Origin: Octopus vulgaris
Lineage: Eukaryota
Length of the DNA stretch: 64,000 bases
Direction of reading: 5' to 3'
Assembly: GCA_951406725.2 (NCBI GenBank)
Contig: OX597827.1
Span: 61,256,001 to 61,320,000, forward strand
The notes under the pieces: generated by a model
The model's input: the letters and a program-made list of their open reading frames with translations, nothing else
Told to the model about the DNA's origin: nothing
The model's database searches: none
Shown: in pieces, positions 3,066 to 10,924 of the stretch
Position numbering within the stretch: position 1 is the first letter of the stretch
How the letters are laid out: each line of letters begins with the position of its first letter
Made by a program: the position numbers and the translations under genes

Positions 3066-3323
3066 CGGTTGAAAATTCAATTTTCTCTGTGTTGTGTTTT
3101 AAATTTACTATTCTTTCACACTTTTCTGAAACTTGTTGTAAGGTTACAGCTTGGTTTTTTGCCTTCAATTTTAATCCTAAATAAAAGCTTTTCAAATGCA
3201 ACAATATTTTATAAACAAACTAAACAAACTTATACACACACACACACACACACATGCATGCATGCATATGTGTATATAAGATACAAGGTGTAATATTAAC
3301 ATATTTTCAAATTGTCTTTGCAG

Positions 3324-3344
3324 ATATGTACGAAGACAATGGAT
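3324..3344 (+). CDS. Ferritin-like gene, 21-nt microexon (ICTKTMD), phase 0/0
   Basis: ttttcaaattgtctttgcag|ATATGTACGAAGACAATGGAT|gtgagt; strong acceptor and donor; joins the downstream exons in one open frame. Confidence 0.7.
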
Positions 3345-3701
3345 GTGAGTATAAACACGGAATACTTCAGCTTTTGTTTTTCACATTTATTCCTAAAAAA
3401 CATAAACAGAAATCAAGTAGATGAAAAAGAAATGAATGCTTTGGTTATAGTTATCAATATTCCCACAAATAACACTGTGTAACACTGTTGTATAACAGTT
3501 GAATGTTACACACACACACACACACACACACATATATATATATATATATATATATATATATTATATTAAATTAGAGATAAAACCACTATTAGGCAAATCA
3601 AACAATGAAAAACTTAAGCCAATACATAAAAATAATTAATTTATATTATTTTAAATATATATCAAAAGTATTAAAAATTTAATAAAAGATAATGAGTAAA
3701 A

Positions 3702-3770
3702 CACTACGATCGTTTCATGGCTGTCCAATTCGTAATAATTCGAGTTATAGTTACAGTCAATCTTCAGGTG
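3702..3770 (-). ncRNA. Type I hammerhead ribozyme motif
   Basis: on -: CAC-CTGAAGA-TTGACTGT...ACAGCCAT-GAAA-CGATCG-TA-GTG; stem II partly decayed. Confidence 0.65.
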
Positions 3771-4410
3771 ATTGAAATATTTATCTTAGCGAGGTTTATA
3801 TATATTGGTAAAAACGGTAAGATAACAAAAGAAAGAAAGAGACCTCGAAATTATGTAAATAGAGGACATTTATCTGTAAAATAATATGTGACAATTATTC
3901 AATAGCCAAGATAAAACTCTGAGTTTCGGATGCCGAGGTGGAAATCCACAACACAATCTTGCACTTTTATATTAGTAGCAGATTTATAACACAGTAATTT
4001 CACCTTTGTATAACGGTCTTTTTTCATAGCATTTTTCAGATGGCCAGATAACCGAAGAGATGGTGTTGTGGATTTCTACCTCAGCATCTGAAACTCAGAG
4101 TTTTATCTTGGCTATTGAATAATTGTCACATATTATTTTACAGATATATATATATATATATATGTATATATAGGCACCCTGTGTCACACAAATGGCACCC
4201 ATGTTGGTGGCACATGAAACTACTCATTACACTGTCAGAGTGGTAGGCATTAGGAAGGGCATCAAGCCATAGAAAACCATGCCAAATCTGACTGAAGTCT
4301 GGTGCAGCCTTCCAATGTGCCAGACCAATGAAACTGTCCAACCAACGCCAGCATGGACAATGGACGTTAAATGACGATGATGATGATATATTTTTAGGTA
4401 CATGTATGTA

Positions 4411-4977
4411 TTGGGTTGTCGAGAAAGTTCGTGCCGATTTATAGTAGCTTACCTTTTGACTTATTTTAGAACATGCTTGAGTCCATAAAAGAGTATTTGA
4501 CTACACCTCCATTTAGAGCACAGTTCAAGCTATCTTTTCGTGGAAAGAGGTTTATGTTCCTATAACCTGTGTTAATTCTGTAACCCTTTAAATTGGAAAA
4601 TAAGAAAGTTCACTTTCGGCACTTGATACTTTGGGAACCAGACAAAAATTGCTGCAGCTCGGCTGGGATGCGTTACCCTCACTCTCCATACTCACCAGAT
4701 GTTGCTCCTTCAGATTTCCACTTATTCAGGTCTCTGCAGAATAGTCTTAATGGGAAAAATTTCAATTCCTTGGATGATGTAAAAAAATACCTTGATGAAT
4801 TCTTTACCATAAAATCCCCTCAATTCTGGGAAGAGTGTATTTTCAAGTTAAAGGAAAGATGAAGACACATTGTGCAACAAAATGGCTCATATTTGGTTGA
4901 TTAAAAATGTAATGGCAAATATTTATTGACCTTTTTCTTTCCTTTAAAAATCGGCATGAACTTTCCGGACAAACCAA
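4411..4977 (+). mobile_element. Internally deleted mariner transposon
   Basis: about 30-bp TIRs (TTGGGTTGTC...GCCGATTT) with TA flanks; N-terminal HFRHLILW fused to C-terminal PYSPDVAPSDFHLF; isolated TIR near 57765. Confidence 0.9.
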
Positions 4978-8158: not shown

Positions 8159-10083
8159 ATGTATATATGTATGTGTGTGTATATATATATATATATATAT
8201 ATATATATATGTATGAATATATATATATGTATATATATATATATGTATGTATATATATATATATATGTATATATGTATACATGTATATCTATATACATAT
8301 ACATTATATATATTATATATACATGTATATATAAATATATATATCTGCACACATATATAGACACACACACACACACACACACACACACATATATATACAG
8401 GGCATCATCGACTTACGGCCATAACTGGTTCCAACTGACTGTCATAAGTTGATGAGGTTGTAAGTTAGCCTTTAGGCCTACATAGCTTTGTTTTATATTT
8501 TTACATTCTTAAGAAACATTCTGAGGTAAAAGTCATGCAAAGCATTCAGTATTATACCATTACACTGGCATTACTCAAAAATTTCGGAGTCTCAAGCAGT
8601 TGTCTTATAAACAATTATGTTTATATGTAAGTAAATCCCTAGAAGGGATTTACTTGTAAGTAAATCCCTAGAAGATCAGTGATCTGTGCAGAATCATTCA
8701 ATCCCATGGTAATATCAAAATTATTATGTCTATATTTTCTAGTTCACAGTTTATTGTTAAGTTCAATAAGTGTTTTCCTTGCTGCTAGGATATTATTTAT
8801 CTAATTTCTGGTGAGATTAGAATTTTCATAGCAAATATTAGAGCTTTATGAAGGAGAATAGGAGAGATAGAATGACACTAACTATGAAAGTCAAATTGCT
8901 AGAATTTAATATTCTTTTAATCTATAAAGTTATCAAACCAGTTAATTAATTTTATAGTATTAGATCACAGGTTTATTAGATCTCTGTTTATACTAACCGA
9001 TGTCATCTTATTTATAGTGACTAGCACATACCACTCGTCATGTGGGAGGGATGTACCATAATTACTTTTATCCCTACAACACTACCACCCCAACCTGATT
9101 GCAGGATCTTCTCTTCCAAGGTATTTGGTTAATTCATTGCTGTTGGTTTCATGAAAAAAATCACCCACTACACTCCATAAAGTGTTTGGGATTACGAGGG
9201 GCAACAATCCAGAGAAAGAATGCCAGAGCTGATAACAAAGCTTTTGAGTTGCTAGCTCTTATGAAGCTGGTCAACATGGAAGGAGGATGTTAAATGACGA
9301 TAACACAATGATATATATATATATATATATATATATATATATATCATCATATCATCATCATCATCATTTAGCATTCGTTTTCCATGCTAGCATGGGTTGG
9401 ACCTATATATATATATATATATATATATATATATATATAGTTAATCCAAACAAGAAAGCACAAAAAAACACAACAACGCGAGGACGTGGAACAAATATAG
9501 TATTATTGGACGCTCAGGAAAGAAGGAAAAGAGGAGGGTTTAACGTTTCGAGCAGAGCTCTTCGTTGGAAACATAGGAGAAGGAAAGATCCAGAGAAGGG
9601 AAGACAGAGGAAAAAAATCGCCAACGGTACACACGAGGTCACATTTTGAAATATATATATATATATATATATATATATATATATATATTACAGGCAAGAA
9701 AGTAAATTTCAAACACAATAAAGCTGTAAGAACAGCAGAGAAAAATTGGGTAATTACTCTTACACAACAGAAAAATAAGTTGACAATAGACAGCTATGGA
9801 AAGGAACCTGTTCCCTTCAGATAATAATTCAGTGCTTCACCATTAAGCAAAATGGCTCCTGACAACAATTACCATCAATTTTAATGCTAAATATTAGCTT
9901 TTCAACTGCAACAACATTTTATAAACAAACTAAACAAATTTATATTTACACACACACACACACACACACACACACACACACACACACATATACACACACT
10001 CACACACACACACACACATACACACACATATGCATGCACATGTGTAAATAAGATACTAACATATTTTCAAATTATCTTTGCAG

Positions 10084-10098
10084 ATGTGTCATACATAC
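10084..10098 (+). CDS. Ferritin-like gene, 15-nt microexon (MCHTY), phase 0/0
   Basis: attatctttgcag|ATGTGTCATACATAC|gtaagt; both flanks paralogous to those of the 3324 exon. Confidence 0.7.
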
Positions 10099-10218
10099 GT
10101 AAGTATAAATTTGGAATACTTCAATTTTTCTTTTTCACATTTATTCATGAAATGCATAAATACAAACCAACTAGATGAAAAAGAAAAGAATGTTTGGGCT
10201 GATAATGTTAACTGCATA

Positions 10219-10603
10219 GTGGAGGCGCAATGGCCCAGTGGTTAGGGCAGCGGACTCGCGGTCATAGGATCGCAGTTTCGATTCCCAGACCGGGCGTTAT
10301 GTGTGTTTATTGAGCGAAAACACCTAAAGCTCCACGAGGCTCCGGCAGGGGATGGTGGTGATCCCTGCTGTATTCTTTCACCACAACTTTCTCTCGCTCT
10401 TACTTCCTGTTTCTGTTGTACCTGTATTTCAAGGGGCCGGCCTTGTCACTCTCTGTGTCACGCTGAATATCCCCGAGAACTACGTTAAGGGTACACGTGT
10501 CTGTGGAGTGCTCAGCCACTTACACGTTAATTTCACGAGCAGGCTGTTCCGTTGATTCGGATCAATCGGAACCCTCGTCGTCGTAACCGACGGAGTGCTT
10601 CCC
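10219..10603 (+). mobile_element. tRNA-derived SINE (resembles octopus OR-type); relatives near 29060-29240 on -, 51510-51700 and 60697
   Basis: A box TGGCCCAGTGG, B box GTTTCGATTCC; absent from the paralogous intron copy near 3450. Confidence 0.8.
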
Positions 10604-10924
10604 TAGATATCAATACCCCCACAAATAACGCAGTGTAACATGAGTTTTGTCTTTGGGTAGCGACTTTTATTCCCTATTTGCTCACTCCTAGATGTATGAA
10701 AAATGGCTTATGTTTCCTTCAAACTTTGTGCTTGTTGTAATATTTATTCCAAGCCCCCAAAAATCCCTCTCAAACACATGGCTGTGATGCTCCCACACTA
10801 CACCTGCTCATCATCAGAGATACACATATTGTCAGCCACTAAGGGACATGCTCAAGTGGTTAAGGTCAAGCTATTGAGAAGCAAATCTGGGGTACTGAGC
10901 AGAATATTTGCTACAATGCTAGTT

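Follow-up and report, generated by a model that had tools for sequence, protein, structure and literature searches.

Within a 64,000-nucleotide stretch of the Octopus vulgaris genome (contig OX597827.1, positions 61,256,001 to 61,320,000; hereafter the window), we analysed three coding microexons, U1, U2 and U3, of a gene whose protein product, P0005 (O. vulgaris CAI9733177.1), is labelled uncharacterized in the database. Comparison of their introns provides good support for tandem duplication of a single flank–exon–flank unit. On balance, we favour a history in which these phase-0 exons are likely copies of such a unit that probably went on to change faster than the neutral introns around them, with selection acting on a surface loop predicted in a remote ferritin homologue.

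All six exons in the window (6/6) are read in phase 0 and translate exactly to residues 137–259 of P0005. U1–U3 match residues 137–155 of this annotated protein and are bordered in each case by AG...GT, which supports as real coding microexons the three segments proposed in an initial annotation of this DNA. Readings of the exon chain in phase 1 or phase 2 were discarded, as both run into stops in the 45-nucleotide (nt) exon when inspected by eye, and phase 0 matches the protein. A RefSeq model from Octopus sinensis, P0003 (XP_036364934.1), has the same microexon peptides, and comparison over 210 residues shows just 2 differences from P0005. U1, U2 and U3 stand in series in P0003 and P0005 alike. 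Bilaterian neural microexons, which are 3–27 nt long and preserve the frame, belong to an SRRM3/4–eMIC programme, carry a UGC enhancer shortly before the 3′ splice site and are included specifically in neural tissue. The octopus microexons, at 21, 21 and 15 nt, fall inside this size range and keep the frame, and the only TGC common to all three acceptors lies within TTTGCAG, which also occurs at the last exon. The units and the exons downstream of them are arranged as follows.

3159–3323, plus strand: acceptor-side intron flank of unit 1; homologous block, (CA)n, branch-point-like TTAAC at −28, AG
3324–3344, plus strand: microexon U1; 21 nt, phase 0-0, ICTKTMD, residues 137–143 of P0005
3345–3484, plus strand: donor-side flank of unit 1; homologous to 10099–10197 plus 10604–10640
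5180–5412, plus strand: distal acceptor-side block of unit 2; unique 60-nt junction and dispersed-repeat fragment, probably co-duplicated with 9084–9311
5943–6153, plus strand: proximal acceptor-side flank of unit 2, from self-comparison
6154–6174, plus strand: microexon U2; 21 nt, phase 0-0, LKGAEKH, residues 144–150 of P0005
6624–7280, plus strand: reverse-transcriptase remnant of a long interspersed element (LINE) in the U2–U3 intron; PF00078, E = 1e-7, likely a later insertion
9084–9311, plus strand: distal acceptor-side block of unit 3, from self-comparison
9825–10083, plus strand: proximal acceptor-side flank of unit 3; expanded (CA)n, 12-nt deletion
10084–10098, plus strand: microexon U3; 15 nt, phase 0-0, MCHTY, residues 151–155 of P0005
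10099–10640, plus strand: donor-side flank of unit 3, interrupted by a dispersed element at 10218–10590
11238–11282, plus strand: 45-nt exon; phase 0, residues 156–170, flanks not homologous to the units
13666–13767, plus strand: 102-nt exon; phase 0, residues 171–204, predicted ferritin helix C region
16244–16411, plus strand: last coding exon; residues 205–259 and stop, ferritin helices D–E, ATTAAA at 16600 and 16610

Self-comparison of the window bore out the proposed homology of the introns upstream of the 21-, 21- and 15-nt exons, with acceptor-side identities of 89–96%. Outside the microsatellite, these blocks are 89–91% identical over 63–115 nt, rising to 93–96% over the last 31–59 nt, and in the final 27 bases of the intron the pairs of units match at 26/27, 26/27 and 25/27 positions; block borders were drawn after viewing the alignment, which somewhat inflates flank identity. 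With microsatellite and exon included, 3159–3355 and 5987–6185 are 84% identical over 201 positions. The reported match between 5949–6015 and 9830–9897 forms part of a longer one (5943–6057 versus 9825–9938, 91%). On the donor side, the flank said to be shared by the exons at 3324 and 10084 and split by an insertion was also recovered, at 83% for 3345–3444 versus 10099–10197 and 86% for 3448–3484 versus 10604–10640; the splitting element is 373 nt long and has five other matches in the window. Unit 2 has only the first 11 donor-side bases in common with the other units (10–11 of 11), and beyond these no significant similarity to units 1 or 3 was detected. Flanks of the 45-nt, 102-nt and last exons showed no homology to those of the units. 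Identity is maximal at the splice sites (25–26 of 27; 10–11 of 11) and drops outward to 79–87%. No flank block comes near 100%, the longest exact run being 17–19 nt in the stretch tested, and the upstream 63-nt block has three private changes per copy. The lack of a near-100% tract and of a divergence shoulder beside the exons would fit one old event. A single contig from four sequencing runs, and from neither of the two RNA-like ones among them, covers 3296–3500 with one intronic difference; 3150–3278 was skipped as repeat, the known U2 and U3 copies are missed as well, and the contig has no bearing on copy number, splicing or skipping.

It is hardly credible that the flanks are merely a dispersed repeat, or that the segments are not spliced at all. 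Across the 64-kilobase (kb) window in which copies were counted, each proximal flank block occurs two or three times, beside the microexons only, and the three peptides stand in order in models from two species. What speaks for such an explanation is that splicing is read here from gene models and that the distal acceptor block holds a dispersed-repeat fragment. This block corresponds to an earlier reported match of 5178–5410 to 9077–9310, which is present (5180–5450 versus 9084–9344, 82% over 272 nt), although approximately 175 nt of it is the repeat fragment, with seven further matches in the window. The 5′ 60 nt of the block have window copies at units 2 and 3 only, and because this junction is found at just two places, the block was likely copied together with the unit. 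A separate 60-nt block at 3099–3158, directly upstream of the unit 1 flank, matches 22902–22961 at 90%; these are its only two copies in the window, the second lying 6.5 kb beyond the gene end, and the block may be an element that truncated the unit 1 flank.

If a flank–exon–flank unit had been copied, the first intron should share its acceptor side with the array and the last intron only its donor side. This is the pattern observed: the intron before U1 bears the shared acceptor side, and the one following U3 combines the common donor side with an acceptor unrelated to those of the units (P 0.18–0.89), an architecture that supports the proposed triplication of one ancestral unit. The acceptor after U3 is difficult to reconcile with duplication of an intron into an older, longer exon that was thereby cut into non-homologous pieces, as both intron ends should then be shared. 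Such intron copying would account for the chance-level identity of the exons and their abrupt edges without invoking selection, and is consistent with a gapless protein alignment considered below. However, equal 21-nt sizes would be unexpected, and recurrent cysteines in a seven-residue register (see below) and the similar starts of U1 and U3, which agree at five of their first six bases, would be left unexplained; we consider this route highly unlikely. Returning to unit duplication, transposon fragments break the flank homology differently in each copy, and the event therefore appears old on the transposon timescale, with flank divergence of 10–20%. Two further transposon remnants lie in these introns: a degenerate Gypsy-like pol remnant recognized by eye at 757–2440, before U1, two fragments of which had no Pfam match, and a Mariner-like remnant at 4406–4982, between U1 and U2, with 38-nt terminal inverted repeats (84%).

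The exons had been described as barely alignable, and we found them no more alike than shuffled sequences; comparison of flank and exon identity thus set similar flanks against exons at chance level. Ungapped, U1 and U2 are identical at 6 of 21 positions (shuffle P 0.60), and the best gapped scores of the three pairs are equally unremarkable (shuffle P 0.25, 0.39 and 0.75). An alignment of U1 and U2 shifted by 2 nt (12/19), considered as a possible compensated frameshift, was no better than shuffles (P 0.25) and was dropped. Among 524 flank windows of 21 columns, which overlap and are not independent, none scored as low as any exon pair. In neutral simulations with 18% substitutions and 2% indels, dissimilarity of this degree had P values of 0.004, 0.016 and 0.001 for the three pairs, and over a neutral divergence of 18–21% the exons were more diverged than expected (simulation P 0.001–0.03). 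The very high identity beside the acceptors can be put down to constraint on splice signals, but the contrast between the exons and distal blocks of 79–87% cannot. Of the explanations for this contrast, fast exon change after duplication is the likeliest, and positive selection on the exons is a plausible and even likely cause. In its favour, an Argonauta homologue lacks nine residues exactly in the U2–U3 stretch. The earlier claim of accelerated coding change under positive selection is plausible in that divergence exceeds neutral simulation, but conversion of the flanks would look similar, and the ratio of non-synonymous to synonymous substitution rates is incomputable on unalignable exons.

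The protein in which the microexons reside is a remote ferritin homologue. An exhaustive protein search (E ≤ 0.001) retrieved three representatives, namely the O. sinensis protein, the Argonauta protein (36%) and an unnamed protein (27%); a profile search added a further unnamed homologue, P0011, and the last exon as query retrieved two Octopus protein clusters. A six-sequence profile matched ferritins in the PDB (best E 6.6e-8) in two stretches, over helices A–B and D–E, that flank a large insert; 74 sequences matched at E ≤ 1, and the 60 listed were all ferritins. Atlas feature matches were likewise ferritin clusters (0.89, 0.90), and the Atlas model (predicted template modelling score 0.62) had structural matches at template modelling scores of about 0.5. 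A Foldseek fold search gave no match at E ≤ 0.001, and AlphaFold predictions for six sequences were uninformative. Between two conserved anchors, we counted 118 residues in octopus, 129 in Argonauta, 101 and 96 in the unnamed homologues and 52 in the ferritin structure 7dqo, corresponding to 66, 77, 49 and 44 extra residues, respectively, between helices B and C.

Ferritins are four-helix bundles that assemble into iron-loading cages of 24 subunits. Their genes have a phase-0 intron in the B–C loop, which faces the outer surface of the protein, and the last intron of the octopus gene sits at the position that the third intron has in ferritin genes of animals. These comparisons support the assignment of U1–U3 to part of a long insert at the B–C loop position, in agreement with the surface loop imagined in the initial annotation, and display of this insert on the outer surface would be expected from the ferritin fold. 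In a second lineage, P0008 and P0011, two related unnamed Logan proteins of 241 residues, differ by indels in the B–C loop and near the N terminus, so that the loop is length-labile there too. When P0005 is aligned to 7dqo, residues E23, E58, H61 and Q137 of the latter, presumably ferroxidase ligands, stand opposite T38, S72, L75 and L217, and the helix-C glutamate falls outside the alignment. Because these four ligand positions are replaced, the octopus protein is likely non-catalytic, that is, ferroxidase-dead. P0005 and P0007 both begin with a stretch that looks hydrophobic by eye and is encoded beyond the window; a signal peptide is likely, as is secretion.

Several observations weigh against rapid exon change in a ferritin loop. 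At 30% substitutions and 3% indels, the simulation P values become 0.075, 0.12 and 0.014, so that two pairs lose significance. The 6/21 identity of U1 and U2 demands near-saturation as against 10–20% change in the flanks, a very high rate, and between the Octopus models U1–U3 differ at 1 of 19 residues, conservatively, with no sign of ongoing hypervariability. BLASTP aligns P0005 residues 138–185 gaplessly to the distant P0011 (8 identities in 48), which suggests that the length of this stretch is already ancient, and what look like counterparts of both U1 (M) and U3 (C) are retained in Argonauta, which would make these exons older than their flanks look. As to the ferritin assignment, single-sequence Pfam scans of exons and proteins gave no ferritin match, and the AlphaFold model is weak (predicted local distance difference test score 37), with helices in the expected order and coil at 108–146.

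The gapless alignment, the possible Argonauta counterparts and the conservation of 18 of 19 exon residues between the Octopus models would all suit an old microexon array in which purifying selection kept the exons distinct and the introns were evened out by gene conversion, a process that ended once transposons had inserted; primate opsins offer a precedent (PMC3924837). Conversion, however, would require separate tracts of similar age on either side of every exon. Identity is highest next to both splice sites, without a shoulder, and no near-identical tract is present. Moreover, the P0011 B–C region is 22 residues shorter than that of octopus, and MAFFT places the P0011 loop in another register; alignment of the loop to P0008 and P0011 varies between runs and is hence weak. 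We regard conversion as less likely but still a serious rival, deserving more credit than the other alternatives, and retain unit duplication followed by rapid exon change.

Splicing of U1–U3 in RNA is inferred from the two full gene models, of which the second annotation may derive from the first. Since gene annotation would hardly produce a chain of 15–21-nt exons unaided by transcript alignments, the pair of models counts as good, if indirect, evidence. Both differences between P0003 and P0005 are K/R exchanges within residues 109–155 (chance of both falling there 0.049), one of them being K145 of U2, which is R in the O. sinensis model; RNA editing was set aside as a cause, both records apparently being genome-based gene models. 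The last exon is present in 20 of 24 listed sequencing runs from seven studies, none recorded as RNA, and these runs were not used for expression.

We could not uphold the idea that the exons act as combinatorial cassettes. Both full models carry all three, symmetry extends to the neighbouring 45- and 102-nt exons, and any internal duplicate has to be a multiple of three in length if it is to be retained. Skipping that diversifies the loop, in the manner of schistosome micro-exon genes (MEGs), is compatible with either origin of the array and would be allowed by the symmetric, phase-0 microexons. A third O. vulgaris model, P0004, could be taken as an instance, as it lacks the whole insert and has 22 unrelated residues, starting VS, in place of residues 109–155. 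This replacement is, however, likely a model artefact caused by donor read-through, P0003 and P0005 include every unit, and dropping just one of U1 and U3 would make the cysteine count odd (six in all). Combinatorial skipping is thus unlikely and, since U1 and U3 each hold a cysteine that would likely be unpaired upon skipping, constitutive inclusion is the better guess.

Read-through in P0004 would also make residue 108 a likely exon end and the insert 141 nt long, or 6 × 21 + 15. All four insert cysteines (117, 131, 138 and 152) occupy position 2 of a seven-residue register; for the two upstream ones, 117 and 131, the chance of this is 0.02. Because the cysteines hold this position, the window is probably preceded by a further four microexons, and the insert of 47 residues (109–155) would derive from seven microexons. 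Insert lengths near multiples of seven (42, 49 and 77) were not used in this argument, as 66 and 44 do not fit.

These considerations suggest the following course of events. A symmetric 21-nt exon in the B–C loop intron would have been copied with a few hundred intron bases, leaving the frame intact, and every copy would have lengthened the loop by about seven residues. Later transposon insertions would have spread the copies 3–4 kb apart and eroded the outer flanks, while branch point and polypyrimidine tract remained constrained. The exons would now be spliced, likely as a constitutive chain, to yield one cysteine-bearing insert.

Components of this scheme have counterparts elsewhere. In snail yolk ferritin, which lacks an iron-responsive element in its 5′ untranslated region, is expressed in the digestive gland and is taken up into yolk, a large insert sits in the B–C loop, and in conotoxin and venom phospholipase A2 (PLA2) genes coding change outruns intron change after duplication. 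The yolk ferritin of Lymnaea and Biomphalaria is described as having a signal peptide and a 42-residue insert, absent from classic ferritins and without documented homologue (PMC10799875). The octopus protein resembles it in architecture, being a ferritin homologue with an insert of 66 residues as opposed to 42 and an N terminus that by eye looks like a signal peptide. Searches with the octopus protein returned no snail yolk ferritin among their matches, and the searched parts of that paper do not mention exons or introns. Schistosome MEGs also place small symmetric exons in likely secreted proteins (PMC4350168), and exon duplication near transposons with accelerated evolution has been proposed for them (PMC4350168; PMC10526429). 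As described there, MEG coding regions consist mostly of microexons, whereas in octopus they make up 57 of 777 nt in the exons shown here, or 141 of 777 (18%) if the register argument holds, sit inside a folded ferritin scaffold and give no sign of skipping. Primate red and green opsins (PMC3924837) similarly have a diverged exon between similar introns; they are whole genes under ongoing conversion, unlike the sub-genic octopus units with 10–20% flank divergence and no shoulder. Coding change outruns intron change in duplicated snake genes as well, with accelerated evolution (PMC6609765), but the snake, conotoxin and PLA2 cases concern whole-gene paralogues with alignable codons, whereas the octopus exons are unalignable paralogues within one gene. 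Tandem duplicated exon substitution and mutually exclusive exons (PMC9741552) also involve tandemly duplicated exons, with a single copy per mRNA in the mutually exclusive case; in the gene models, the octopus copies are used in series and not as alternatives.

In the open literature, as distinct from subscription papers and supplements, six accessions of the octopus protein family went unmentioned, no paper among those listed combined octopus, ferritin and microexon, none was found on molluscan yolk-ferritin exons, and yolk ferritin with cephalopod returned snail transcriptome papers only. Exon duplication, exons evolving faster than introns, microexon arrays and secreted ferritins with inserts are each known; these searches did not turn up the octopus case itself.

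Elsewhere in the window, a coding-looking exon on the minus strand at 54945–55100 resembles NAD-dependent epimerase/short-chain dehydrogenase (SDR) proteins by eye, had no Pfam match at E ≤ 0.01, and adjoins a 650-nt (GAA)n tract. A direct repeat of about 170 nt (45325–45570 and 45895–46070, minus strand) contains the same reading frame twice. Three tandem head copies of a short interspersed element (SINE) occupy 41310–41620, and a tandem array of about 45-nt units fills 24780–25420, with a long (GAT/GAC)n tract after it (25580–26100).

A bolder extrapolation, which we consider quite unlikely, is that octopods use a dead secreted ferritin as a display scaffold, with a B–C loop that grows by serial birth of 21-nt microexons, each driven to saturation by positive selection shortly after it arose and possibly spliced in combinations, which would amount to a MEG-like diversifier mounted on a protein cage, and that the same process explains the snail yolk ferritin insert. 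On the more restrained reading favoured here, the locus would represent microexon birth with its intronic footprint still legible, which is rarely possible for exons of 15–21 nt. The analysis also places in the ferritin family an octopus gene hitherto labelled uncharacterized, whose product is probably secreted and non-catalytic, and suggests a candidate route by which secreted ferritins of molluscs might have gained their large loop inserts.

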